Notes: a model not told the origin generated them from the sequence alone. Positions 48,934 to 62,586 are shown, counted from the stretch's first letter. The stretch: DNA of 62,586 nt from Acidimicrobiia bacterium (GCA_036502765.1 DASXXX010000047.1:1-62586), one strand, 5' to 3'. A program made the numbers and translations.

Positions 48934-49407
48934 TCACGAGGTCGGCCGACTGCGCGTGAAGAGCACCCGGTCGAGGAGCACGAACTGCAAGATCCAGAGC
49001 AGGCCGAAGCCGCCGAAATGCCCGACCAGGACGGCGCCCGTGCGGAGCATGGGCGTCAGCTGCATGTGCGCCGTCCAGGAAGCGGCGATGGCGACCGTGA
49101 CCGTCGAGAGGGCGAGACCGCAGAATGCAAGGAGCCAGAAGGGGAAGATCTCCCGCCAGAAGTCGCTGCGGTCCCGCCGCGCCCACGTCCACCGACGGTT
49201 CAGGTGGTACGACGGAACGGTTGCGACGCTCGTCGCCAGGATGTTGGCGACGACGGCGGCGAAGGCAAAGACGTTCGTGGCAACCACGATGACCACGACG
49301 CTGATCGCGGTCGTGACCACCGAGACGCTCATGCAACGCCGAAGCCGACCGACCAGCGTGGGAACTTCAGGCGCAACGCATTCCTGGACATCGAGCGCAG
49401 CAGTCAT
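48934..49407 (-). CDS. GtrA-family membrane protein
   Basis: 157 aa, four TM segments, ...YHLNRRWTW... motif. Confidence 0.75.
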   Translation of the reverse strand: MTAALDVQECVAPEVPTLVGRLRRCMSVSVVTTAISVVVIVVATNVFAFAAVVANILATSVATVPSYHLNRRWTWARRDRSDFWREIFPFWLLAFCGLALSTVTVAIAASWTAHMQLTPMLRTGAVLVGHFGGFGLLWILQFVLLDRVLFTRSRPTS

Positions 49408-50207
49408 GACCGGCCGCCGATCGAGTGCAGCACCACGGCCTCGTCGCGCTCGCGCCGCCGATGTTGGAACGCCCGTCGGGTCACCATCACGAGCGCTTCG
49501 CGGATGATGGCCGACGACATCTTCGATTCGCCGGCGGTGCGGTCACGGAACTCGATCGGCACCTCGACCATCACCGCGCCCTGAACTCGCGCCCGATCGG
49601 TCATGTCGATCTGGAATCCGTAGCCAGTGGTCGTCACGGTTTCGAGGTCGATCGCGCGCAGCAGGCTCGCCCGATAGGCGCGGTAGCCAGACGTCACGTC
49701 GCGGAGCGGAAGCCCCAACAAGGTGCGTGCGTACCAGCCGCCCGCCCGCGACAGGAGACGGCGGCGGGCCGACCAACCGGGCGTGTCCCCGCCCGGGACG
49801 TACCGCGAGCCGACTGCGAGGTCGGCACCGCACTCGATGGCTGCGACCAGCGCGGGGAGATCACTCGGATCGTGGGAGAGGTCGGCGTCCATCTCGACGA
49901 GCACGTCGAAGTCCTCCGACAGTCCGATGCCGAACCCCGCGCGATAGGCCGGTCCGAGCCCACGCGGCCCGGTGCGTCGAAGCACATGAATTCGTCCGAT
50001 CATCAACGCCACGGCCTCCGCCCGCTCCGGGGTGCCGTCCGTGCTGCCGTCGTCGACGACGAGCACGTGCGCGGCCGGAAGCGCGTTGCGGACGCGCCGC
50101 AGCACCTCCTCGATGTTGGCGCTCTCCTGCAAGGTCGGTAGCACGACGAGGGTCCGGAACGTGGCTGGATCGGAGTGCATCTCGCGGAGCTCAGCGGAAG
50201 CGGTCAT
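49404..50207 (-). CDS. ppm1: polyprenol-phosphate mannose synthase-like GT2 glycosyltransferase
   Basis: ATG 50207 with AAGGAGG upstream. VVLPTLQESANI, VVDDGSTDGT, EMDADLSHDP, SRYVPGG. Stop overlaps the gtrA-like start. Confidence 0.8.
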   Translation of the reverse strand: MTASAELREMHSDPATFRTLVVLPTLQESANIEEVLRRVRNALPAAHVLVVDDGSTDGTPERAEAVALMIGRIHVLRRTGPRGLGPAYRAGFGIGLSEDFDVLVEMDADLSHDPSDLPALVAAIECGADLAVGSRYVPGGDTPGWSARRRLLSRAGGWYARTLLGLPLRDVTSGYRAYRASLLRAIDLETVTTTGYGFQIDMTDRARVQGAVMVEVPIEFRDRTAGESKMSSAIIREALVMVTRRAFQHRRRERDEAVVLHSIGGRS

Positions 50208-50592
50208 GGCGGTTGCCTCCTTCGTGTTGGACGGGGTGTGCAGCGCGCGAGACGAACTCACTCGCGTTTCCGATGCGGCGTCGTAGCCGCAGGGTCAACT
50301 CGTCGACTGCGGCTTGCATCGTGGTTGCCACGGCTCCGGCGACGATCACTCTGCTGCTGCCGTCGAGGACCACTGCGCACTCTGCGATTGCCAACGGGCG
50401 CGGGTGGCTGACAGGTTCCGAAGTGAGGTGTGCGTGTGCGCAGTACCCCGCCGGCGCCGCATCATCGGAGACCCTGCGCAGCTCGTCGAGTGCATAGGTC
50501 CAGTCGAGCGCGGAGACCGCCCCGTTGAAGGTGGCCGTGACGACACGGTGCGACACCTGCGGACCGCTGCGACCGACACTGACCCTGTCCAT
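50191..50592 (-). CDS. HPF/RaiA (S30EA)-like small protein, tentative
   Basis: ATG 50592 with GAGGAGG upstream. Beta-alpha-beta-beta-beta-alpha-like pattern: VVTATFNGAVSALDWTYALDELRRV ... AIAECAVVLDGSSRVIVAGAVATTMQAAVDELTLRLRRRI. 17-nt overlap with the ppm1-like start. Confidence 0.4.
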   Translation of the reverse strand: MDRVSVGRSGPQVSHRVVTATFNGAVSALDWTYALDELRRVSDDAAPAGYCAHAHLTSEPVSHPRPLAIAECAVVLDGSSRVIVAGAVATTMQAAVDELTLRLRRRIGNASEFVSRAAHPVQHEGGNRHDRFR

Positions 50593-50844: not shown

Positions 50845-52533
50845 GTGACGACCGCACTGGTCGAACTGAATCCGTGGCCCACATCGCGGCGGCCGAGGCG
50901 GTGGTCGGCGAGATCGTGGTTGTGGGCGCCGCTGATCGCGGGCGCGGCAGCGGTCGCGATCTGGCAGCTGGGGTTCCGCGGTTCCGACGTCCCGGCGCAG
51001 CTCTACTACGTCAGGGTGTTCCGCGCCCACGGGTGGGTGCTCTGGGACAACGGCTGGTACGGCGGCCACTTCCAGGTCTCGTACTCGGTCTTGTTTCCAC
51101 CCTTGGGCGCGAGCATCGGTGTGTACGGGGCGGCCTTGGTGTGCGCAGCTTCGTCGGCATGGGCGTTCGAGCGTCTCGTCGCCACTGCCTCTGGTCGACG
51201 CAACTTCGGACCCGGGATCCTGTTCGCGGCCGGGACGGCGGTCGCGGTAGCGATCGGTCAGTTGCCCTTCCTCGCCGGTGTCGCCGCCGGGTTGTTGGCA
51301 CTGTTGGCAGCGTCCCGGAATCGCACCGTCGTAGCGATCGTCTTCAGCGCGAGCTGCGCGCTGTTCAGCCAGATCGCCGGGGCGTTCCTCGTCCTCGCAA
51401 TCCTCTCGTGGGCGCTCACGAGTGCGGCAGGAGAACGCAGGAGGCTGTTCGTGCTCACTGGGGTCGCGGCGCTGCCGGTCCTCATGCAGAGCATCATGCT
51501 CCCCCACCTCGGACCGTTCCCGTTCATGGGTCCCGATCTCTTCGTCCTCGAGAGTGTGTGCGTCCTCGGAGTGATTGCGCTCCCGAAGGAGTATCGGGCT
51601 CTCCGCGTGGGGCTCGTGCTCTACGGCGCCACCGCGTTGGCGGTGTTCGTGGTGCCGAATCCCCTCGGGGGCAACGTGGGACGCGCCATCCTCTACTTCG
51701 CGCCAGCGTTGTTCGCGTTCCTTGGGACGCTTCCGGGGCGACGCGCGTTCGCGTTGCTCGTGCTTCCCCTCCTCGTCTGGCAGTACGTCCCGGCGCTGTC
51801 GTCGCTCCAGAGCGACAACTCGAGGCAGGCCAGCTACTACGCGCCTCTGGTGAAGTTCCTGACCAGCCAACCGACCATCGGTCGACTCGAGATCCCGTTC
51901 ACGAGCGCGCACTGGGAAGCGGCGTACGTGGCACCGCGCGTCCCACTCGCGCGAGGTTGGCTCCGCCAGCTCGACACCCTCGACAACCCCATCTTCTACG
52001 CGTCCGCATCGATCAACGCGACGAGCTACCACCAGTGGCTCCTGCGGAGCGGCGTCACCTGGGTCGCGCTCCCAGACGTCTCGCTGGACTACTCCGCGGC
52101 CGCGGAAGCCCACCTGTTGGAGCACGGTCAGCAGTACCTCCAGCTCGCATGGAACAACGCGCACTGGCGACTCTGGAAGGTCACCGACTCCCCGGGTCTG
52201 GTGAGCGGTCCCGCGCGCGTCGTCGCCCTCGGGCCGGATCACGTGACACTGGAAGCCACTGGCACCGGTCCCGCGCTCGTTCGCGTCCGCTACACGTCGC
52301 TGTGGCACATCGCCCGAGGCAGCGCCTGTCTGCGGTCGAACAGTCGACAGTGGACCAAGCTCATGATCCAACAGCCCGGACGCATCGAGCTCACGACGTC
52401 GCTGTTCGACACCGGCAACGACTGCACCGCGGCGCCATCGGAGCGTGCCCAACTCGCTCGACATGTGGCCACGCCAACAGCCGAGCCGCCCCACAGCGGT
52501 TCGTCAGAACATTCAGGCCAGCATGAACGGTGA
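50845..52533 (+). CDS. polytopic membrane protein with C-terminal extracytoplasmic domain (GT-C-like glycosyltransferase candidate)
   Basis: GTG 50845 with GGAGGAG upstream. ~10 hydrophobic segments, then a ~200-aa soluble domain. Family not identifiable by eye. Confidence 0.45.
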   Translation: MTTALVELNPWPTSRRPRRWSARSWLWAPLIAGAAAVAIWQLGFRGSDVPAQLYYVRVFRAHGWVLWDNGWYGGHFQVSYSVLFPPLGASIGVYGAALVCAASSAWAFERLVATASGRRNFGPGILFAAGTAVAVAIGQLPFLAGVAAGLLALLAASRNRTVVAIVFSASCALFSQIAGAFLVLAILSWALTSAAGERRRLFVLTGVAALPVLMQSIMLPHLGPFPFMGPDLFVLESVCVLGVIALPKEYRALRVGLVLYGATALAVFVVPNPLGGNVGRAILYFAPALFAFLGTLPGRRAFALLVLPLLVWQYVPALSSLQSDNSRQASYYAPLVKFLTSQPTIGRLEIPFTSAHWEAAYVAPRVPLARGWLRQLDTLDNPIFYASASINATSYHQWLLRSGVTWVALPDVSLDYSAAAEAHLLEHGQQYLQLAWNNAHWRLWKVTDSPGLVSGPARVVALGPDHVTLEATGTGPALVRVRYTSLWHIARGSACLRSNSRQWTKLMIQQPGRIELTTSLFDTGNDCTAAPSERAQLARHVATPTAEPPHSGSSEHSGQHER

Positions 52534-52643
52534 CGTTGCCACTCGCCGGGGCCGACGCAGGGGTGCTGTCCCCGAAGACACCAAGTGTCCGAAGCGCGAT
52601 CGTGCTCATGGATCCTCATCGAGGATCACGCGAGGAGCACACG

Positions 52644-55436
52644 ATGGGACCAAGGACCTGCCCTTCCGACCGAGGCGGACAAGCGTGTGACATGCCAGCG
52701 CGCTCTGCGACGCTTGCGATCGGACGGGACGAGGTGACGGAAGCCCTCAACGCCGCCGCAGCCGGTCACGGCAACGCGCTCATCGTGCGAGGCGAGGCCG
52801 GCCTCGGAAAGTCGACGCTGCTGCACGAGGCCGTCGTTGCAGCCGCCGGGTTCCGGGTCGCGACGGTCGCCGGCGAGCAGTTGGAGCAGGGTCTTTCGTA
52901 CGCCGGGCTCCACCGACTGTTCGTGACGATGCTCGACCGCATCGACACGCTGCCCGCTCCTCAGCGCAACGCTCTCGCTGCTGCGCTCGGCACGCGGGAG
53001 GGCATGATCGATCCGTTTCTCGTGGGGTTGGCCGTCATGGGTCTGCTGTCGGAGATGAGTGCGGGCGAACCGTTCCTCTGCGTCATCGACGACGCGCAGT
53101 GGATGGACGCGGCCTCGATGCAGGCGCTGGCGTTCGTCGCCCGTCGCCTCGGCACTGAACGCGTCGCGCTGATGTTCGGGGTCGTGGACACTGCCGACGA
53201 GCTCGCGGGCCTGCCCGAGGTGCTCCTGCGCCCACTCTCGGACGCCGACGCCCACGATCTGGTCGTCTCGGTTGTCCCGGGCCCACTCTGCCCACAGGTG
53301 GCCGATCGGATCGTCGAAGAGTCCCAGGGCAACCCGCGGGTGCTGCTCGCTCTGCTGCGCAGCTTCTCGCCAGAGCAACTCGCCGGCGGGTTCGGCCTGC
53401 CCGTCGCACTGCCGGCGGGCGATCCGCTCGTAGCTACCTTGCGCTCGCGGCTCGACGGTCTCGGTACGGACACGCGGGAACTGCTCCTCGTCGCCGCGGC
53501 GGAACCGGAAGGCGATCTGGCGCGGTTCTGGGGTGCGGTGGAACGCCTCGACCTCGATCACGCCGCGACTGATGAAGCAGTCGCCCTCGGGCTGCTCGGA
53601 TTCGGTACTCGAGTCACCTTCCTCCAGCCGCAGCTGCGTTCGCTCGTGTACCACGATGCCCTCCCGGCCGACCGGCGCGCAGTGCATCGAGCACTCGCTG
53701 GCACGACCGAGCCGGAGCAGGACGTCGACCGGCGCGCATGGCACGAAGGCCATGCCGCGCTGGGCATGGATGCGCCCGTCGCCGACGCGCTTGAACGTTC
53801 TGCGACGAATGCGCAAGTACTCGGAGGCTTCGCAGCTGCAGCCGCCTTCCTCGAGCGGTCGGCCCTGCTCACGTCCCACCCCGACCGCCGCGCGCAGCGC
53901 GCGCTCCTCGCCGCGCGCGCGAAGTTCGAGGCCGGATCGGTGGAGGCGGCCTCCCAGCTGCTCACCCTCGTGAACGAGACGTCGCTCGACCAGCTCGAGC
54001 ATGCACGACTCCAGCAACTTCGCGCCGAGGTGGTCGCGCAACGCCGCGGGAGCGAGGCTCCACCGTTGCTGCTCGACGTCGCCCGCGCACTCGAGCAGCT
54101 CGATGTCCAGCTCGCCCGCGACACGTACCTGCAGACACTCGAAGCCGCCCTCGTCGCCGGGCGACTCGGTGCCCACCGCCGCCTGGTCGAGGCTGCACTC
54201 GCGGGTCGAGGAACACCTCGCTCGAGCATCCCTTGCGGCGCCGACTGTCTGCTCGACGGTCTGGCGCTGCTGATCACGGACGGCCACTCGGCCGCCCAGC
54301 CGGCATTGCGGCGCGCGGTGCAGGCGTTTCGAAGCGAAGACGACACCCGCTGGCTCGGTCTCGCATGCCGCGCCGCGGCCGAGGTCTGGGACGCGGACGC
54401 GACGTTCGACCTCGCGACGCGGTGGACTCAGCTGAGCCGCGACACCGGTGCGCTGATCCACCTTCCGATGGCACTGAACTTCACCGCCGGCCTCCACGTC
54501 CATGCGGGTGAGTTCGAGACCGCCGCAGCACTCGTCGAGGAGGCAACCTCGATCGTGACGGCGACGGACCTCGCGCCGGTCTCGCACGGCGCTTTGGTCC
54601 TCGCCGCGTGGAGCGGTCGTGAGCTTCGAACGTCGGAACTGATCGAAGCGGCCAGGCGCGATGCGCTGACGACCACTGACGGACTCCTGCTCTCCCTCAC
54701 CGAGTACAGCGCCGCCGTGCTCGCGAACGGCCTCGGCCGATATCACGACGCGCTCGACGCGCTCCAGAGCTACGACGACCGCGACGGGCTCGTGTCGAAC
54801 TGGATCCTGCCCGAGCTCGTCGAGGCCGCGGTGCGGAGCGGAGAGCACGCGCTCGCCGCGTCGGCAGCCGAGGAGCTCACGGTGCGCACCGAGGCGGCTG
54901 GCACCGAATGGGCCCTCGGGTTCCAGGCGCGTTCCTCCGCACTGCTCACTGACGGCCCCGCGGCCGAGAAGCGTTACCGGGAAGCCATCGAGCGCTTCGG
55001 ACGCTGCCGGGCTTCTGGCCACCTCGCACGAGCGCACCTGCTGTACGGAGAGTGGCTCCGTCGCGAACGCCGACGCCTCGAAGCACGTGAGCAGCTTCGT
55101 CTCGCACGCGACATGTTCTCGACGATGGGCGCGGCCGCCTTCGCACAACGCGCGGAACGAGAGCTCTTCGCGACGGGCGAACGCGCACGTAGGCGAAGCG
55201 TCGAGACCGTGCGCCACCTCACGCCCCAGGAGCTGGAGATCGCGCGGTTGGCGAGCACCGGAGAGTCGAACCCCGAGATCGCCGTGCGGCTCTTCATCAG
55301 CGCACGCACCGTCGAGTACCACCTGCACAAGGTGTTCACGAAGCTCGACATCCGCTCGCGGACCCAACTCGCCGTCGCACTCGACGGTGACACCCGGTTG
55401 TCGCGGTCACCGAACGCAGGAGCAGCGCTGCGATGA
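52644..55436 (+). CDS. LAL/MalT-type large ATP-binding LuxR-family regulator
   Basis: Walker A GEAGLGKST, long helical-repeat middle section, C-terminal LuxR HTH LTPQELEIARLASTGESNPEIAVRLFISARTVEYHLHKVFTKL. Start at ATG 52644 (CGAGGAGC upstream) or 52692. Confidence 0.85.
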   Translation: MGPRTCPSDRGGQACDMPARSATLAIGRDEVTEALNAAAAGHGNALIVRGEAGLGKSTLLHEAVVAAAGFRVATVAGEQLEQGLSYAGLHRLFVTMLDRIDTLPAPQRNALAAALGTREGMIDPFLVGLAVMGLLSEMSAGEPFLCVIDDAQWMDAASMQALAFVARRLGTERVALMFGVVDTADELAGLPEVLLRPLSDADAHDLVVSVVPGPLCPQVADRIVEESQGNPRVLLALLRSFSPEQLAGGFGLPVALPAGDPLVATLRSRLDGLGTDTRELLLVAAAEPEGDLARFWGAVERLDLDHAATDEAVALGLLGFGTRVTFLQPQLRSLVYHDALPADRRAVHRALAGTTEPEQDVDRRAWHEGHAALGMDAPVADALERSATNAQVLGGFAAAAAFLERSALLTSHPDRRAQRALLAARAKFEAGSVEAASQLLTLVNETSLDQLEHARLQQLRAEVVAQRRGSEAPPLLLDVARALEQLDVQLARDTYLQTLEAALVAGRLGAHRRLVEAALAGRGTPRSSIPCGADCLLDGLALLITDGHSAAQPALRRAVQAFRSEDDTRWLGLACRAAAEVWDADATFDLATRWTQLSRDTGALIHLPMALNFTAGLHVHAGEFETAAALVEEATSIVTATDLAPVSHGALVLAAWSGRELRTSELIEAARRDALTTTDGLLLSLTEYSAAVLANGLGRYHDALDALQSYDDRDGLVSNWILPELVEAAVRSGEHALAASAAEELTVRTEAAGTEWALGFQARSSALLTDGPAAEKRYREAIERFGRCRASGHLARAHLLYGEWLRRERRRLEAREQLRLARDMFSTMGAAAFAQRAERELFATGERARRRSVETVRHLTPQELEIARLASTGESNPEIAVRLFISARTVEYHLHKVFTKLDIRSRTQLAVALDGDTRLSRSPNAGAALR

Positions 55437-56368
55437 TCCAGGCTCGAGGCTTGACCAAGCGCTACGGACCGACGGTCGCGGTCGATGATCTGTCGTTCGA
55501 CGTGTCGCCCGGTCGCGTGACCGGGTTCCTGGGCCCCAACGGTGCCGGGAAGAGCACGACCATGCGCCTCATCGTCGGACTCGACGCACCCACGGCCGGC
55601 GAGGTCTCGATCAACGGGCGGGCGTTCGCGCAGCACCGCTTCCCCGCCCGAGAGGTCGGTGCTCTCCTCGACGCGATGGCGCTGCATCCAGGGCGGCGCG
55701 CGGTCGATCATCTCTGGTCGTTGGCCCAGAGCAACCACATCCGACGGCACCGAGTCGACGAGGTCCTCGACGTCGTGGGGCTCACCGACGTGGCCGGTCG
55801 CCGCATCGGTCCCTTCTCCCTGGGGATGAAGCAACGTCTCGGAATCGCGGCGGTGTTGCTGGGCGATCCGGGCACGCTCCTCTTCGACGAGCCGGTGACC
55901 GGCCTCGATCCCGAAGGGATCGTCTGGATCCGCACCCTCTTCCACCGACTCGCTGCAGAAGGACGCACCGTCCTCGTGTCGAGCCACCTCATGAGCGAGA
56001 TGGCGCTGACCGCGCAACACCTGATCGTGATCGGACGGGGCAAGCTCCTCGCAGACGAGAGCATCGAGCGCATGATTGCCGCGGCCGGCTCCTCGGTGCG
56101 GGTCCGCTCGCCACAGCAGGCGGACCTGGGCCGGGTGCTCGAACACGAAGGTGCCACGACCCGCTCCGACGACGGTGCGCTCGTCGTCACCGGCCTCGAC
56201 GCTGCCGGCATCGGCGACCTCGCCGCCGCGCATCGCATCACGCTGCACGAGCTCTCCCCGCAACGCGCATCGCTCGAGGAAGCCTTCTTCGATCTCACCG
56301 AAGACAGCACCGAATACCAAGGTGCCGACATCACGTCCACACCTGCGACTCGCGAGGTCCTCCGATGA
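55433..56368 (+). CDS. ABC transporter ATP-binding protein
   Basis: GPNGAGKST, FSLGMKQRLG, LLFDEP. Start overlaps the LuxR stop. Confidence 0.9.
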   Translation: MIQARGLTKRYGPTVAVDDLSFDVSPGRVTGFLGPNGAGKSTTMRLIVGLDAPTAGEVSINGRAFAQHRFPAREVGALLDAMALHPGRRAVDHLWSLAQSNHIRRHRVDEVLDVVGLTDVAGRRIGPFSLGMKQRLGIAAVLLGDPGTLLFDEPVTGLDPEGIVWIRTLFHRLAAEGRTVLVSSHLMSEMALTAQHLIVIGRGKLLADESIERMIAAAGSSVRVRSPQQADLGRVLEHEGATTRSDDGALVVTGLDAAGIGDLAAAHRITLHELSPQRASLEEAFFDLTEDSTEYQGADITSTPATREVLR

Positions 56369-57225
56369 GCACCGCCGCCGCGTCCACCCCTCGACCCGCG
56401 CCCGAGTACGCACTCGACGCGTTCGCCGACTCGGAACGACGTGCGCGTCCTGCGGTGCTGCCATACGTCATGCGGTCGGAGTGGACGAAGCTCCGTTCCG
56501 TCCGTTCGACGGTCTGGTCGTTGTTGGCGACGTTCGGCATGACGGTCGGCCTCGGCGCCGTGTTCTCGTGGGCCTACGTCAATCGCTACAGCCAACAGAG
56601 CCTCGCTGACCGCCTCACCTTCGACCCGACTTCCCGCAGTCTCAGCGGCTTGTTCCTCGCCCAACTCGCGATCGGTGTGCTCGGTGTGCTCATCATGAGC
56701 TCCGAGTACGCCACCGGGTTGATCCGAGCCACCTTCATCGCGGTCCCCCAACGCCGCACCGTCCTCGGCGCCAAGGTCGCCGTCTTCGGCGCGGTGGCGC
56801 TGGTCGTGAACATGGTGTCGGTGTTCGTCGGGTTTCTCGTTGGCCAGGCCATCCTGAGCACCAAGAGCCTGGGTGTGTCGCTCGGCGATCCGGGCGTGCT
56901 CCGAGCAGTCGCCGGCGCCGGCGCGTACCTCACCTTCGTGGCGTTGCTCGGTCTCGGCATCGCCACCGTGCTCCGGCGCACCGCTGGTTCGATCGCCACG
57001 CTCGTCGGCTTCGTCCTCGTGCTCCCGCTCCTCGTCCAGGCCCTCCCGAGCCCGTGGAACCACGACATCGCGAAGTATCTGCCCAGCGAGATCGGCGACG
57101 CCCTCTACAGCGTTCGCTCCAGCCCCAACCACCTGTCACCCGCGGCGGCGCTGGGCGTCGCCGCGCTCTATCTCATCGCCACGTACTCCGGCGCAGCAGT
57201 ACTCATCACCCGACGCGACGCGTAG
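56365..57225 (+). CDS. ABC-2-type transporter permease
   Basis: SEWTKLRS and SSEYATGLIRATF motifs, six TM segments. Start overlaps the ATPase stop. Confidence 0.8.
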   Translation: MSTAAASTPRPAPEYALDAFADSERRARPAVLPYVMRSEWTKLRSVRSTVWSLLATFGMTVGLGAVFSWAYVNRYSQQSLADRLTFDPTSRSLSGLFLAQLAIGVLGVLIMSSEYATGLIRATFIAVPQRRTVLGAKVAVFGAVALVVNMVSVFVGFLVGQAILSTKSLGVSLGDPGVLRAVAGAGAYLTFVALLGLGIATVLRRTAGSIATLVGFVLVLPLLVQALPSPWNHDIAKYLPSEIGDALYSVRSSPNHLSPAAALGVAALYLIATYSGAAVLITRRDA

Positions 57226-57322: not shown

Positions 57323-58786
57323 ATGAGCAGAACTACAGGCTGGCCACCTGAGTCCACAGTCCACGGATTGGATCCGTTCCTCCTCGCGCCGCCGAGCCGC
57401 GCGCGGGAGATCCACCGCTCACACGGCGCCGGCGTACAACTCCGGCGCTGGTGGATGCTGACCACGATCGTGCTGGCCGGCGCGGTGCTTCGGCTCTGGG
57501 GGCTCGGTGCCCACCGCCTGGACTTCGACGAGGCCTTCACCGCCATGGCCGGTCGCCTCCCGCTCCGCGGCCTGTTCGACTACCTCCGGGTACGGGACTC
57601 GCACCCGCCGCTCGACTACCTGCTCCATGCGCCACTCGCACGCGCCGGCGTCGATGAATTCCTGTTCCGCCTGCCATCGGCAGTCTGCTCGATCGGTGCC
57701 GTCGCGCTGTTCGCCTGGTGGATGCGCCGCCGCGGCTTCTCCGGGATCGTGGCGACGGGCCTGCTCGCCGTGAGTGCCTTCCAGCTCACACATGGACGCG
57801 AAGCTCGCATGTACGCAGAAATGGAGCTCATCGGCGTCGGGGTGGCGGTGCTCGCCGAATCATGGCTGCGCCGACCGCGACGTTGGCACGCGGCCGTGTT
57901 GGCCGCGCTCGTGTTCGTGGGGCTGCTCACGCACGTCTCGATGTTCCTGCTCGGCGCCGGTCTCGTCGTGCTTGCAGGTCGGCGCACGGATCGTGACGCA
58001 TGGCGTTGGCGTCTCGCCCTCGGGGCGGGTGCGGTCGGCTGGGCTGTGCTGTGGGGCTCATCGTTCCTCGTTCAGAGCCGGGGCGGCCATTCGGACTGGA
58101 TTCCGCGCACGACCTTCGACGGCATGATCCACACCTTCGGTCGCCTGGTGACGTACCAACCTGCGCTCCACGTGTTCGTGCTGGCGGCAGTTGCCGCAGG
58201 CGCAGTCCTCCTGGTGCGCGCCGACCGGCAGCTCGGCCGAGTCTGGTTGTGCTGCGTCCTCGTTCCTGCCGCACTGGCCGCGCTGACGGGAACGGTCGCG
58301 CCGGTGCTGCTTGATCGGACGTTGACAGTGGTGTCGTGGGGTCCGCTGCTGGCGCTGGGCGTGCTGGTGGACGCGGCCGCGTCCCGTTCACGACTGCTCG
58401 GCGCGATCGTGGTCCTCGTGCTCGTCGCGGTGATGGTCCCGCCCGCGATCCACGCGGTGACCGAGCCGTCCGCCCCGGACCGGGTGCTGCGCCACGTCGA
58501 AGCGGTCACCGGTCCCGGTGATGTCGTCGCGATCCACCCCGGCGGACGCCTCCACGAGCTCCTCTGGTCCGTCGGTGTCCGAGACAGCCAGCCCTACCAG
58601 CCGGTCTCCCTGGTGGGGTTCGGAGACAGCACCGGATTCGTGCTCAGTCCGGACGCGCCTCGAACCGGCCACCTCTGGATTCTCGACTGGACGAAGCACG
58701 CTCTCCCCGTTCCGACACTGCCGAGGTGCGCACCCGACTGGTCCGGCGGCGGCGCACGCTTGTACTGCCTCGTCGGTGGTCACTAG
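57323..58786 (+). CDS. GT39/PMT_2 (ArnT-like) polyprenyl-phosphate-sugar-dependent glycosyltransferase
   Basis: ATG 57323 with GGGAGG upstream. LDFDEAFTAMAGR (DE motif in the first loop), DSHPPLDYLL, many TM segments. Confidence 0.65.
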   Translation: MSRTTGWPPESTVHGLDPFLLAPPSRAREIHRSHGAGVQLRRWWMLTTIVLAGAVLRLWGLGAHRLDFDEAFTAMAGRLPLRGLFDYLRVRDSHPPLDYLLHAPLARAGVDEFLFRLPSAVCSIGAVALFAWWMRRRGFSGIVATGLLAVSAFQLTHGREARMYAEMELIGVGVAVLAESWLRRPRRWHAAVLAALVFVGLLTHVSMFLLGAGLVVLAGRRTDRDAWRWRLALGAGAVGWAVLWGSSFLVQSRGGHSDWIPRTTFDGMIHTFGRLVTYQPALHVFVLAAVAAGAVLLVRADRQLGRVWLCCVLVPAALAALTGTVAPVLLDRTLTVVSWGPLLALGVLVDAAASRSRLLGAIVVLVLVAVMVPPAIHAVTEPSAPDRVLRHVEAVTGPGDVVAIHPGGRLHELLWSVGVRDSQPYQPVSLVGFGDSTGFVLSPDAPRTGHLWILDWTKHALPVPTLPRCAPDWSGGGARLYCLVGGH

Positions 58787-61700
58787 ATGACCGGGGTCCC
58801 GACCTACCAATTGCAGACCGGCGCCGTCGGTGCGCGCGAAGTTCTGCACCATTCGCGAACGGTCCGAATCATGTTCGCCGCGTTGGGGCTGCTCGCCGTC
58901 GGTCTGGCGCTCCAACTCGCGGTGTTCGCTCATGGTGGCCACACCGCGCTCAGCGACCTCCCACGCGTGTTCTTGCACCGGGGCGTCGGCCCGGACGCGT
59001 TCCCGTATGTCGACCGCGCCACTGAGTATCCCGTCGGATCGGGGCTCCTGCTCTACGTCGCCGCACTGATCTCACCCGGCGCACTCGGGGTGCTGCTCGT
59101 GACCGCGCTCGCCTCGGCGGCGCTGTGTCTCGTGATCGCCGTTGCCCTCGAGCGGCGTGTCGGAGATCGCGCCTGGCGTTGGGCGCTCGCAGTGCCGGTG
59201 CTCCTCTACGCGTTCCAGAACTGGGACGTCTTCGCCATCGCGGCCCTGGTGGCCGGGTTGCTCGCGTTCGAGCGCCGCCGCGACTGGACCGCTGGCGCGG
59301 CGCTCGGACTCGGCGCGGCGGTGAAGCTCTTCCCGGCGATCGTGCTCCCCCCGCTGATCGCCGTTCGCCTCGCCAGGGGTGACCGACGGGGGGCGGTCCG
59401 GCTGGCCGCGTCGAGCGCGATCGCCTTCGTTGCGATCAACCTGCCAGTCCTGCTGGCCAACCCTTCCGGTTGGTGGTGGCCCACGGCCTTCCAGTCTCGA
59501 CGCAACGCGACCTGGGGCAGCGCGTGGTTCTACCTCTTCCGCCTCGGTGGTCTCCCCGTGCACGGCGCGACGGGCGCGCGGCTCGCCAACGTCGTCTCGC
59601 TCGTCGCATTGGTGGCCGCGGTGAGTTGGCTGACCATCGTGACGATGCGGCGCAGGTTGCCGCCGCTCGCCGCCGCGGGAGCCGCGGTTGCGATCTTCAT
59701 CCTCTGCAACAAGGTCTACTCACCGACGTACGACCTCTGGCTGGTCGTGTTCTTCGTGCTCCTGCCCTTGAGCTCCCGCCTCTGGGCCATCTTCTGTGGC
59801 ATCGATCTCGCGGTGTTCATCACCGTGTACGGCCATTTCCACGGCCTCGACTCCACGCAGTTCGTACGGGTCGTGCTGCCGGTTCTGGTAGCGGTACGAA
59901 CGGTGGTCTTGATCGTCCTCGTGTTCTCATCGACTCGCCCGCTTCCCACTGCGTGGAGGATCTCCCGGCCCGCGAGGGGCGGCTCGAGACCGCCGCTCGG
60001 GCGCGCTTGCCGACCAGGGAACCGCCAGGCCGCGAGGTCGAGAGCCTGGCCGTCCGTGTTCCTCGTCCCGCTGCTGATGTGTTCACTCGTCGGCATGACG
60101 GGTGCCGACGCCGCGGGCGCCGCATCGACCACGACGACCATCGGAGCATCGGGACAGGTCACCGCCGCGACGCTCCCCACCCCGCGGCCGTCGAGCGTCG
60201 ATGCCAGCGGGACCGTGAGCGCGTTTCCGGCGCCGGGCACGCTCACCGCTTCGCCCACCACCACGATCACCTTGCGCGGCGTCGACGCGGCGACGCTGAG
60301 CTCCATCGACGTGTCCGGCGCGAAGAGTGGTAGCCACGCCGGACATTTCCAACCACACGCCGACGGGCTGGGCACCACCTTCGTGCCCGACGCCGCGTTC
60401 ACGGCCGGTGAGAGGGTCACCGTGACAACGGGTCTCTCGGTCCGTGCCGGCACGAATGGGCGGTACATGTTCACGGTCGCGCGTCCCGCGGCGTACCCGG
60501 GCCCGGTCCCGGCCACGACCGCCACCGGCGATCTGCAGCACTTCGTCAGCCGGCCCGATCTCACTCCACCTGTGCTCACGCTCACGACGCCACCGAAGAA
60601 CACCGCGCCCGGCGACATCTTCCTCACTCCCCGGGGCGGGGGCGCGCAGAACGGACCGCTCGTCGTCGACGACGAAGGTCAGCTCGTGTGGTCCGCGCCG
60701 GTGCCGGATGCTCCGGTGTACAACCTCCAGCTGCAGCAATACCGGGGGCAACCGGTGCTCACCTGGTACCAGGGCCCGACCGTCAACCCCGGCATCGGCC
60801 AGGGCATGGGCGTGATCGCCGACGCGAGCTATCGCACGATCGCGCAGGTCCACGCGGTGAATGGCTACGCGGCCGATCTCCACGACATGACGATCACGCC
60901 ACAGGGCACGGCCCTGCTGGTCATCTACAACCCCGTGATCGTCGATGCGTCGTCGGTGGGGGGCTCGAAGAACCAACACGTGTTCGAGCCGGTGATCCAG
61001 GAGATCGACATCGCGACCGGCGCGTTGCTCTTCGAGTGGCACGGGATCGGTTCGATCGCCCTGAACGAGACGCACGCGCCGATGCCCACGGCGGCGAGCA
61101 CCATGTTCGACTACGTGCACCCGAACTCGGTCGCCCTCGACGACGACGGCAACGTGCTCCTCTCTGGGCGACACACATGGACCGTCTACAAGATCGACCG
61201 CGTCAGCGCGACACTCGACTGGCGTCTGGGTGGCAAGGTCGGCAACTTCACGATGCCGAAGAACGCCATGCCGGCCTGGCAACACGATGCCCGACGGAAC
61301 AGTGACGGGACCCTCAGCGTCTTCGACGACGGCGCGGGACTGACGACCACGCACAAGTCGCGCGGGTTGGTGCTCGGCATCGACGAGCACACGATGACCG
61401 CAACCCTCGACCATCAGTACTTCCCACCAAAGCCGATCCAGTCGACCGCCGAAGGGAGCATGCAACTGCTCGCGAACGGGGACTGGCTCGTCGGATGGGG
61501 CAGCCAGCCCGAGTACACGGAGTACGCCCCCGACGGCACCGTGGTGTACGACGTGCACTTCCGGTCGTCGTCGGGCGGCCCCGTCACGTCATACCGCGCC
61601 CTGCGGTACGAATGGAGCGGCCGGCCCACCGACGTCCCCGCGGTCGCGGCTGCGCGTACCAGTGGTGATGCAACCAAGGTCGACGTCAGCTGGAACGGTG

Positions 61701-61894
61701 CCACCGAGGTGAGCACGTGGGCGGTGCTCGCGGGGCCGGACGCCGAGCACCTCACGCGGGTGGCGTCCGCACCGAAGAAGGGATTCGAGACCTCGATCCC
61801 CGTCGTGAGCAACCAGCCCTACTTCGCCGTCCAAGCCCTCGACGCCGCCGGCGCGGTACTGGCGACGTCGGCACCCACGACACCGCGAGCGTGA
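58787..61894 (+). CDS. fusion protein: DUF2029/GT87-like membrane glycosyltransferase + Arylsulfotran_2-like domain
   Basis: Single 1035-codon ORF with no internal stop. The N-terminal ~385 aa are polytopic (TEYPVGSG, GLGAAVKLFPA). An Arg-rich linker and a signal-peptide-like TM follow (WPSVFLVPLLMCSLVGMTGADA). The C-terminal domain has DLHDM, QEIDIATGALLFEW, FDYVHPNS, WQHDAR and SVFDDG motifs. Confidence 0.7.
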   Translation: MTGVPTYQLQTGAVGAREVLHHSRTVRIMFAALGLLAVGLALQLAVFAHGGHTALSDLPRVFLHRGVGPDAFPYVDRATEYPVGSGLLLYVAALISPGALGVLLVTALASAALCLVIAVALERRVGDRAWRWALAVPVLLYAFQNWDVFAIAALVAGLLAFERRRDWTAGAALGLGAAVKLFPAIVLPPLIAVRLARGDRRGAVRLAASSAIAFVAINLPVLLANPSGWWWPTAFQSRRNATWGSAWFYLFRLGGLPVHGATGARLANVVSLVALVAAVSWLTIVTMRRRLPPLAAAGAAVAIFILCNKVYSPTYDLWLVVFFVLLPLSSRLWAIFCGIDLAVFITVYGHFHGLDSTQFVRVVLPVLVAVRTVVLIVLVFSSTRPLPTAWRISRPARGGSRPPLGRACRPGNRQAARSRAWPSVFLVPLLMCSLVGMTGADAAGAASTTTTIGASGQVTAATLPTPRPSSVDASGTVSAFPAPGTLTASPTTTITLRGVDAATLSSIDVSGAKSGSHAGHFQPHADGLGTTFVPDAAFTAGERVTVTTGLSVRAGTNGRYMFTVARPAAYPGPVPATTATGDLQHFVSRPDLTPPVLTLTTPPKNTAPGDIFLTPRGGGAQNGPLVVDDEGQLVWSAPVPDAPVYNLQLQQYRGQPVLTWYQGPTVNPGIGQGMGVIADASYRTIAQVHAVNGYAADLHDMTITPQGTALLVIYNPVIVDASSVGGSKNQHVFEPVIQEIDIATGALLFEWHGIGSIALNETHAPMPTAASTMFDYVHPNSVALDDDGNVLLSGRHTWTVYKIDRVSATLDWRLGGKVGNFTMPKNAMPAWQHDARRNSDGTLSVFDDGAGLTTTHKSRGLVLGIDEHTMTATLDHQYFPPKPIQSTAEGSMQLLANGDWLVGWGSQPEYTEYAPDGTVVYDVHFRSSSGGPVTSYRALRYEWSGRPTDVPAVAAARTSGDATKVDVSWNGATEVSTWAVLAGPDAEHLTRVASAPKKGFETSIPVVSNQPYFAVQALDAAGAVLATSAPTTPRA

Positions 61895-62586
61895 GGGCGC
61901 TGGCGGGATTCGTGGTCGCCGGCCTGCTCCTGCCGATCTTGGGGTTCAGTGCGGCGAGCGGGCCGGGGGCGGCGGCGACGCCGAGCGTGTCGGGACGGCC
62001 CAACATCGTCTTCATCCTCACCGACGACCTCGACGCGACGACGTATGACCCGGCGCGCTTTCCCGCGCTGAGGGACCTGATGACGAGCCAGGGCGTCACG
62101 TTCTCGCACTTCTTCGTCGACGATTCGCTGTGCTGCCCGTCGCGGGCGTCGATCCTCCGGGGCCAATACGTGCACAACACGGGCGTGGTCAACAACGTGT
62201 TGCCGACGGGCGGTTTCGAACGCTTCCACGCCGACGGTCTCGAGTCGTCGACGGTGGCGACTTGGCTCCATGCGAGCGGCTACCGGACCGGGCTCTTCGG
62301 CAAGTACCTCAACGGCTACCCGAACACGGTCTCGCCCCGCTACGTGCCGCCAGGCTGGGACACCTGGGTGAGCCCGAGCGGCGGCAACCCGTACGCGGAG
62401 TTCCACTACCTGCTCAACGACAACCGCAGGCTCGTGCCGCACGGTCGCAAGCCAAACGACTACCTGGTCGACGTGCTCGCGCGGAAGACGGTCGGGTTCA
62501 TCAAGGCCGAAGCGGGCCATCCCTTCTTCGCGTACGTGGCGCCCTACGCGCCGCACCAGCCCGCCACCCCGGCGCCCCGGTACGCC
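61891..62586 (+). CDS. formylglycine-dependent sulfatase, N-terminal 232 codons (3' end outside window)
   Basis: GTG 61891 overlaps the preceding stop (GTGA). Signal peptide VRALAGFVVAGLLLPILGFSAASG, NIVFILTDD, CCPSRASILRG. Absent from the ORF track because no stop lies in the window. Confidence 0.85.
   Translation, partial: MRALAGFVVAGLLLPILGFSAASGPGAAATPSVSGRPNIVFILTDDLDATTYDPARFPALRDLMTSQGVTFSHFFVDDSLCCPSRASILRGQYVHNTGVVNNVLPTGGFERFHADGLESSTVATWLHASGYRTGLFGKYLNGYPNTVSPRYVPPGWDTWVSPSGGNPYAEFHYLLNDNRRLVPHGRKPNDYLVDVLARKTVGFIKAEAGHPFFAYVAPYAPHQPATPAPRYA

Follow-up and report, generated by a model that had tools for sequence, protein, structure and literature searches.

A probable young fusion of a GT87-type membrane glycosyltransferase with a Cpz4-like arylsulfotransferase in an uncultured soil actinobacterium

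Two described arylsulfotransferases (ASSTs) frame the locus reported here. The Escherichia coli enzyme (3ELQ) is an exported, soluble periplasmic homodimer without linkage to the membrane, consisting of an N-terminal beta-sandwich and a six-bladed propeller, and its His436 is the sulfo-histidine (PMC13426309). Cpz4, from caprazamycin biosynthesis in Streptomyces, prefers a sugar hydroxyl in a glycoside over phenolic hydroxyls (PMC13426309); it is a 472-residue protein of an antibiotic gene cluster and has neither a signal peptide nor an N-terminal immunoglobulin (Ig)-like domain. Among glycosyltransferases of the GT-C fold, the GT87 enzyme PimE crosses the membrane with 12 helices and keeps both termini cytoplasmic; its catalytic Asp58 lies at the tip of JM1, the first juxtamembrane helix (PMC12041525). 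Joining of a membrane protein to a neighboring enzyme has been observed in experimental evolution of Pseudomonas fluorescens, where deletion-generated fusions relocate a domain to the membrane (bioRxiv 10.1101/091744), and gene overlaps of 4 nucleotides have been linked to coupled translation and to subunits of complexes (PMC10666635). Here we describe a single open reading frame (ORF; 58787–61894, plus strand) in a 62,586-nucleotide stretch of DNA from an Acidimicrobiia bacterium (GCA_036502765.1, DASXXX010000047.1, positions 1–62586; the whole stretch is hereafter called the window), in which a GT87 glycosyltransferase continues into a Cpz4-like ASST. This ORF probably represents a real, young and lineage-private fusion in an uncultured soil actinobacterium of the Acidimicrobiia type, one that would be topologically neutral and would leave the sulfotransferase either tethered or released.

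The ORF consists of 1035 codons and a stop, uninterrupted throughout, as the original prediction had stated. Its N-terminal half matches the GT87 family (PF09594, amino acids [aa] 81–304, nucleotides 59027–59698; E 5e-13, 49.7 bits, cut-off 25), and its C-terminal half matches two ASST families, PF14269 (Arylsulfotran_2, aa 649–926, nucleotides 60731–61564; E 7e-50, 170.6 bits, cut-off 27) and PF05935 (Arylsulfotrans, aa 621–910; E 9e-16, 58.3 bits, cut-off 24.2). Together with the modeled folds described below, these matches confirm the predicted combination of a GT87 membrane glycosyltransferase with an ASST-like propeller. GC content at third codon positions stays between 0.73 and 0.87 across the junction. 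The annotated start of the GT87 module is uncertain: a public gene call on the same contig (P0397) begins at Met29 (ATG 58871, plus strand), giving 1007 residues, and codons 1 to 28 (58787–58870) carry 10 nonsynonymous changes and 1 synonymous change relative to the sister contig introduced next, so the true product may comprise 1007 rather than 1035 residues.

The sister locus, on the metagenome contig L021, is colinear with the window over 57877–61510 at 90.7% DNA identity and carries in the same order the upstream membrane protein, the GT87 gene and the ASST gene; its GT87 product (P0158, 405 aa, 92% identity) is the best relative of the N-terminal half among the matches listed. On L021, the two enzymes are encoded by separate genes in different frames. 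The GT87 gene (911–2128) ends in ...ARAGLAR followed by TGA (2126–2128), and the ASST gene opens at ATG 2125, such that start and stop share the four nucleotides ATGA, as is often seen in translationally coupled genes. The N terminus of the L021 ASST, MTKEPSGDTAADCPPRNPQAGSSRAWRSVLLVPLLMSSLVGLTGAGA... (short form MTKEPSGDTAADC), shares homology with the N termini of ASSTs that stand alone in other contexts, namely P0001 (MTGEPSGDLAADC...) and P0278 (MTGEP...), which indicates that the split state is ancestral and the fusion in the window derived. All other listed relatives of each half are unfused. The comparison of orthologues that had been proposed to decide between separate and fused genes thus returns a separate sister pair, overlapping by ATGA and 29 nucleotides longer than the window between conserved flanks, which directly supports the predicted fusion of two adjacent genes by loss of a stop.

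The length difference lies between exactly conserved flanks, where the window has 120 nucleotides (59930–60049) and L021 has 149 (2054–2202), and the window lacks the ATGA of L021. A loss of 29 nucleotides (29 ≡ 2 mod 3) is the shift needed to align a −1-frame gene with the frame ahead of it, and the MAFFT alignment splits the gaps in the window as 3 + 16 + 10 nucleotides, with the 16-nucleotide gap taking out GATGACCAAGGAACCT, that is, stop and start. Homology to a standalone ASST (P0001, on contig L001) starts near 60007, and two related strain sequences from runs X1 and X4 leave the window at 59976–59987, which together place the fusion breakpoint, as judged from these alignments, at ∼59997–60007. 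The history suggested by this comparison is that a cassette of ASST and sulfatase landed behind GT87 before the window and L021 diverged, and that it then became coupled to GT87 through an ATGA stop/start overlap as in L021. In the lineage of the window, a net loss of 29 nucleotides around this overlap removed the stop and start and brought the ASST, until then in the −1 frame, into the frame of GT87. The fusion is younger than the split from L021, which corresponds to a synonymous divergence (dS) of ∼0.19. Slippage between direct repeats was considered as the cause: L021 carries an 11-nucleotide repeat, ACCAAGGAACC, at 2128–2138 and 2167–2177, bracketing the first 13 ASST codons, of which the window retains only the second copy, diverged. 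This candidate was rejected, as slippage between the repeats would delete 39 nucleotides and keep the ATGA, unlike what is seen in the window.

The possibility that the junction is an assembly or sequencing artefact, the true genome having a stop or frameshift at this position, is raised by the window being a single metagenome-derived contig and by the presence in the same sample of a related strain that could cause a chimeric assembly. The available data make such an artefact highly improbable. In soil-metagenome run X1, 95% of the sampled words of the region are present, and a Logan contig of 426 nucleotides (depth 16.6), built independently of the window assembly, spans 59807–60232 with 0 differences and 0 gaps; depth is even on either side of the junction (16.5–18.8). 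X1 is probably the source sample of the window assembly, so this match argues against a mis-join or assembler error in particular. A 29-nucleotide length change accompanied by many substitutions relative to L021 is not typical of read error. Moreover, the rarer strain co-occurring in X1 (depth 6.3) and a relative in run X4 share the window-type GT87 tail, unlike L021, and diverge after 59976–59987; since the co-occurring strain diverges to non-ASST sequence, a chimera of the two strains would not yield the observed junction. Finally, five of the six junction 31-mers sampled are present, by k-mer index, in run X2, which comes from another sample and another study. In a census of junction alleles, the flank–gap–flank pattern matched no JGI metagenome contig; the same pattern matches the window and L021 locally, so that collection lacks these contigs.

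Two further features of the strain sequences were observed. After ∼59976–59999, the rarer X1 strain and the X4 relative run on as CGGCCGCTCGCTTCGAA[C/G]ACGCG..., and over 59807–59999, the GT87 tail region looks mosaic or hypervariable between strains.

The two halves of the ORF are joined by a linker (aa 383–423; 59933–60055, plus strand) of sequence TRPLPTAWRISRPARGGSRPPLGRACRPGNRQAARSRAWPS, comprising 41 residues with 10 Arg, 7 Pro and no acidic residue, followed by a hydrophobic segment (aa 424–442, VFLVPLLMCSLVGMTGADA; 60056–60112, plus strand) and then AGAAS. Composition and coordinates of this region had been described accurately, but its origin is different from that proposed. The ancestral genes overlapped and left no intergenic DNA from which a linker could derive; the linker instead consists of the C-terminal tail of GT87, predicted to be cytoplasmic (to ∼59999), and a remnant of the n-region of the ASST signal peptide (from ∼60000–60008), in which CRPGNRQAARSRAW of the window corresponds to CPPRNPQAGSSRAW of L021. 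Standalone GT87 orthologues likewise extend 15 to 57 residues past the last membrane helix as nonconserved tails rich in Arg, Pro and Ala. The hydrophobic segment is identified by hydropathy and by alignment with standalone signal peptides as the former h-region together with the AxA motif, which is retained (A440-D-A442/A443); all standalone relatives aligned have AxA and then a Thr-rich stretch. Cleavage by signal peptidase I after Ala442 (60112/60113) may therefore occur, and the sulfotransferase may still be released, because the AxA site is intact. Lost from the ASST are its start codon and ∼12 codons at the beginning of the signal peptide. Members of the secreted clade are exported through an N-terminal signal peptide, which the fused ORF does not have; with the remaining segment in the interior of the ORF, the ASST must be exported as a portion of the membrane protein.

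The original prediction had left open an internal translation start for the second half; in that case, two products would be made and the long ORF would be only a by-product. In-frame candidates do exist, but only three, GTG 60056, ATG 60077 and ATG 60095, and each lies inside the hydrophobic core, is not preceded by a Shine-Dalgarno sequence and would produce a signal peptide devoid of a basic n-region. The ancestral ASST ATG is deleted, and translation of GT87, without a stop, must read through into the second half. Separate initiation near 60056–60095 is thus very unlikely.

The fusion appears to preserve the orientation of both partners in the membrane. In a signal peptide, the n-region lies inside and the C-terminal end outside, and hydropathy with the positive-inside rule predicts an N-in, C-in topology for GT87, with 10 Lys/Arg and no Asp/Glu in the tail. 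The basic linker would therefore remain cytoplasmic after the polytopic GT87 domain, the former h-region would insert as one more in-to-out helix, and the Ig-like domain, propeller and C-terminal domain would come to lie outside the membrane, on the side of the GT-C active site. Such a fusion would be topologically neutral, because the GT87 tail and the n-region of the signal peptide are both predicted to be cytoplasmic. Release by signal peptidase I would restore the two ancestral proteins at a fixed 1:1 stoichiometry, and without cleavage, the sulfotransferase would be tethered beside the active site of the glycosyltransferase.

Two parts of the product (aa 1–470 and the C-terminal half) were modeled separately with AlphaFold2 (AF2). 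The C-terminal half (predicted local distance difference test [pLDDT] 89.4, predicted TM-score [pTM] 0.87) begins with a disordered leader, after which come a beta-sandwich, a propeller and a second beta-sandwich at the C terminus. A Thr-rich spacer and an N-terminal Ig-like beta-sandwich occupy aa 443–585 (60113–60541, plus strand), modeled as all-beta with pLDDT >90 and conserved in standalone relatives; they are followed by the Cpz4-like propeller and C-terminal beta-sandwich (aa 586–1030; 60542–61876, plus strand). In the PDB, the sequence matches 9KF4/9KF6 (E 1.6e-113), identified as Cpz4 from the title given in the fold search, and Foldseek aligns the ASST half to 9KF6/9KF4 with TMt 0.95/0.92, an rmsd of 1.7–2.0 Å and 45% identity. 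The next-best fold match is E. coli ASST (3ELQ/4P07, E 1e-12). A profile of the ASST half reaches 3ELQ (E 8e-6), aligning His778 (61118–61120), Arg795 (61169–61171) and His833 (61283–61285, plus strand) with His356, Arg374 and His436, respectively. These three residues are invariant in an alignment of 43 ASST sequences, every invariant column of which is kept by the window. The ASST half thus resembles Cpz4 in its propeller and C-terminal domain, in the His/Arg/His active site and in membership of the ASST family that is independent of 3′-phosphoadenosine-5′-phosphosulfate. In contrast to Cpz4, it belongs to a secreted clade of ∼620-residue proteins paired with a sulfatase, and is here fused to a membrane enzyme. 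With E. coli ASST, it has in common a beta-sandwich ahead of the propeller and the aligned catalytic residues, at only ∼18% identity and with a match visible only by profile or fold.

Long ASST proteins are not rare; those inspected lack GT87, and P0008 (1006 aa), P0305 (1053 aa) and P0114 (1453 aa) contain tandem ASST units or extra Ig-like or FG-GAP domains. P0008, the top representative match with two matched stretches, was considered as a second fusion and proved to be a tandem double ASST. A second candidate, P0395, is named an arylsulfotransferase and falls in the GT87 cluster; it is a C-terminal ASST fragment linked to that cluster via P0397 only.

The GT87 module (aa 1–382; 58787–59932, plus strand) is polytopic. 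Its model (aa 1–470) has a mean pLDDT of 84.5, a pTM of 0.80 and a core pLDDT of ∼95, and Foldseek matches GPI-MT-I, PIG-U, ALG3, PimE (9DM5, TMt 0.56), ALG6/9/12 and Emb proteins, so that the N-terminal half is modeled as a GT-C fold resembling enzymes dependent on polyprenyl-phosphate sugars. Sequence and profile searches of the PDB with the GT87 half returned no significant match. In an alignment of 75 GT87 sequences, the window conforms at each of the 36 invariant positions, including D57, E80-Y81-P82, Q144-N145-W146-D147, K180, K309 and D316. Asp57 (58955–58957, plus strand), at the start of a modeled helix (57–65) in the first outward-facing loop, occupies a position resembling that of PimE Asp58 and is a candidate catalytic base. 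PimE and other GT87 or GT-C mannosyltransferases that depend on polyprenyl-phosphate-mannose are similar to the window GT87 in fold (E 5e-3 for PimE by Foldseek), possibly in the placement of an Asp in the first outward loop at the start of a juxtamembrane helix, and in the cytoplasmic tail, which is predicted for the window GT87 and known for the termini of PimE. The similarity in sequence is only 18% identity, and the window GT87 differs in belonging to an Acidimicrobiia clade of ∼400-residue proteins and in carrying a 650-residue extracytoplasmic extension.

Fusion at the end of this module has a precedent within the clade. In relatives from related Actinomycetota (P0002–P0005 and P0057, on L002 and L003; 50–61% identity), the same C-terminal cytoplasmic tail is extended by transmembrane segments of a GtrA module, which indicates that this site tolerates added transmembrane segments. 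The partner in these proteins is a four-helix GtrA-like membrane module, rather than a secreted enzyme as in the window, and fusions of GT87 with GtrA are seen repeatedly, in several lineages, in contrast to the single case of fusion with ASST. One further long GT87 ORF was noted in a metagenome-assembled genome (MAG; L016, 6001–9280), reading 712 Arg-rich residues past the conserved end, with a GtrA-like match 2.3 kb beyond; it probably reflects a frameshift or lost stop in the assembly.

Neither half of the fused ORF appears to be decaying: catalytic and invariant residues are kept, and there are no stops or frameshifts. Relative to L021, the GT87 half (386 codons) has 91.7% protein identity, dS 0.18 and a ratio of nonsynonymous to synonymous divergence (dN/dS) of 0.23, and the ASST half (501 codons) has 91.2% protein identity, dS 0.20 and dN/dS 0.23. 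Both enzyme modules look functional as predicted from these features. The intactness of the halves bears on the explanation that the fusion is a neutral or mildly harmful accident, that is, a recent deletion without advantage that may have impaired sulfotransferase export or GT87 folding and persists by its youth. Such an accident is a doubtful account, though one deserving serious consideration: the architecture is the sole fused one among listed relatives, arose only after the split from L021, lies with its junction in a hypervariable, unconstrained tail and has cost the ASST its start codon and the beginning of its signal peptide, but neither half shows degenerative change, and the topology is compatible. 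The fused allele is also dominant in X1 (∼17× versus ∼6× for the related strain) and, by its junction k-mers, occurs in X2.

The distribution of the two domains was examined in several collections. Among 1.84 billion representatives searched, 10,878 matched, and none of the best 150, which were inspected, contained both domains. A search with the N-terminal half gave 276 relatives, of which the best 120 listed are all standalone GT87 proteins of 364–467 aa, and none of the best 120 relatives of either half has both domains; fusions weaker than the listed matches would escape these searches. An ASST within 6 kb of GT87 was found in 0 of 17 species-level genomes (MAGs of Acidimicrobiia or other Actinomycetes), and in one MAG, RYN_53, the GT87 and ASST genes are on different contigs. 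The closer GT87 relatives L022 (79%) and L023 (72%) are followed by unrelated genes, and the ASST relatives L001, L024 and L025 (74–76% identity) are not preceded by GT87. GT87 was likewise found near ASST at none of 80 metagenome loci, 46 of which have at least 1.5 kb of upstream sequence. Gene order at the loci examined therefore indicates that GT87–ASST adjacency is private to the window and L021, which speaks against the idea of a shared acceptor.

This distribution also weighs against an adaptive interpretation, in which fusion was selected to hold the sulfotransferase at the glycosyltransferase, so that an envelope or lipid-linked glycan is glycosylated and then sulfated outside the cell. 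Several observations are in its favor. The ATGA coupling in L021 implies co-expression of GT87 and ASST, and overlaps of 4 nucleotides are tied to coupled translation and complex subunits (PMC10666635); Cpz4, the nearest characterized homolog of the ASST half, directs sulfate to a sugar hydroxyl of a glycoside in preference to a phenol; both active sites are predicted on the same side of the membrane; and an ABC-2 exporter and another membrane protein of GT-C-like type are encoded in the operon. However, adjacency is confined to the window and L021 (0/17 genome and 0/80 metagenome loci), no other listed relative of either half has both domains and those of RYN_53 are encoded on separate contigs, ASST recurrently pairs with a sulfatase and not with GT87, and the retained AxA site may undo the tether. 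Selection for a bifunctional enzyme is accordingly unlikely. A single acceptor for both sugar and sulfate is possible as a hypothesis. The stronger proposal, that a working bifunctional enzyme assembles a lipid-linked or envelope glycan and then sulfates it outside the membrane by its PAPS-independent, Cpz4-like sulfotransferase, and that the sulfatase and an aryl-sulfate donor complete an extracytoplasmic cycle of sulfation and desulfation, is quite improbable; if true, it would mean that Actinomycetota have a previously unrecognized way of making sulfated glycoconjugates for the cell envelope.

Of these explanations, the preferred one remains a real, young fusion, topologically neutral, with a tethered or released sulfotransferase, against which the following points weigh. 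Only one full contig shows the fusion. Because X1 is probably the source sample of the window, its match tests the assembly and not the biology, and is not a biological replicate. No X2 contig was placed on the junction in the ∼67% of that run that was read, so X2 support is by k-mer only. A search for RNA runs with the locus listed none. The ∼60 nucleotides before the breakpoint are only ∼50% identical to L021, and the poor alignment means that the exact order of mutational events is not recoverable. AF2 gives no confident structure for aa 405–465 (pLDDT <50), so that the extra-helix topology is a prediction from hydropathy, from the positive-inside rule and from the relationship to signal peptides. 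Finally, the dN/dS of 0.23 covers the whole divergence from L021 and not the time since fusion, and for this reason cannot prove selection on the fused product.

The closest parallel to the event itself is provided by the P. fluorescens fusions, in which a small deletion between co-oriented neighbors likewise places an enzyme domain behind an N-terminal portion that spans the membrane. Those cases arose under laboratory selection with a measured phenotype, whereas the event in the window is a natural one known here from sequence. Coupled pairs with a 4-nucleotide overlap of the ATGA type (PMC10666635) correspond to its starting point. The architecture is new, although both families and the type of event that joined them are familiar, and is so far limited to one strain. 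The locus would offer a natural snapshot of the birth of a multidomain protein, in which coupled genes have merged and the unfused sister allele is available for comparison. The combination of a cleavable signal peptide with a cytoplasmic C-terminal tail makes for a topologically neutral join, which would explain why the event was permitted, and suggests that a single step can turn a secreted enzyme into the ectodomain of a membrane-bound one. The locus also points to a large uncharacterized clade of secreted Cpz4-like sulfotransferases in soil Actinomycetota, habitually paired with a sulfatase, whose natural acceptors may be glycosides or glycans, because the nearest characterized relative sulfates a sugar.

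Downstream of the fused ORF, a partial sulfatase gene (61891–62586, plus strand; PF00884, E 1e-26) runs off the end of the window; it encodes a CCPSR formylglycine motif and its own signal peptide, and its GTG at 61891 overlaps the ASST stop by 4 nucleotides (GTGA). Sulfatases 77–89% identical to it follow the ASST genes of L001 and L024 with the same 4-nucleotide overlap. Among the 80 metagenome ASST loci (L026–L105), 19 have an adjoining sulfatase, mostly divergently upstream at a distance of ∼200–300 nucleotides. This recurrence suggests a conserved sulfotransferase–sulfatase functional pair in soil Actinomycetota. A minus-strand ORF of 245 aa (61819–62556) was dismissed as an antisense shadow of the sulfatase gene and has no Pfam match. 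On L001, the sulfatase after the standalone ASST shifts frame in mid-gene (∼2650–2710), an apparent frameshift or sequencing error.

Upstream, the stop of a gene for a 487-residue polytopic membrane protein (57323–58786, plus strand), with a GGGAGG Shine-Dalgarno sequence ahead of its ATG at 57323, abuts the ATG of the fused ORF. The sole match of this protein is a weak one, to TIGR03663/Agl23, and it is possibly a second GT-C-type enzyme. The gene is syntenic beside this GT87 clade in L007, L013, L017 and L021–L023, and over 295 codons it differs from its L021 counterpart with dS 0.20 and dN/dS 0.28. Further upstream lie a GT2 glycosyltransferase gene (49404–50261, minus strand); a gene for a LuxR-family regulator of 968 aa with an AAA_16 ATPase domain (52530–55436), which overlaps the next gene; an ABC ATPase gene (55433–56368) with stop/start overlaps to its neighbors; and a gene for an ABC-2 permease (56365–57225), whose start overlaps the stop of the ABC ATPase gene.

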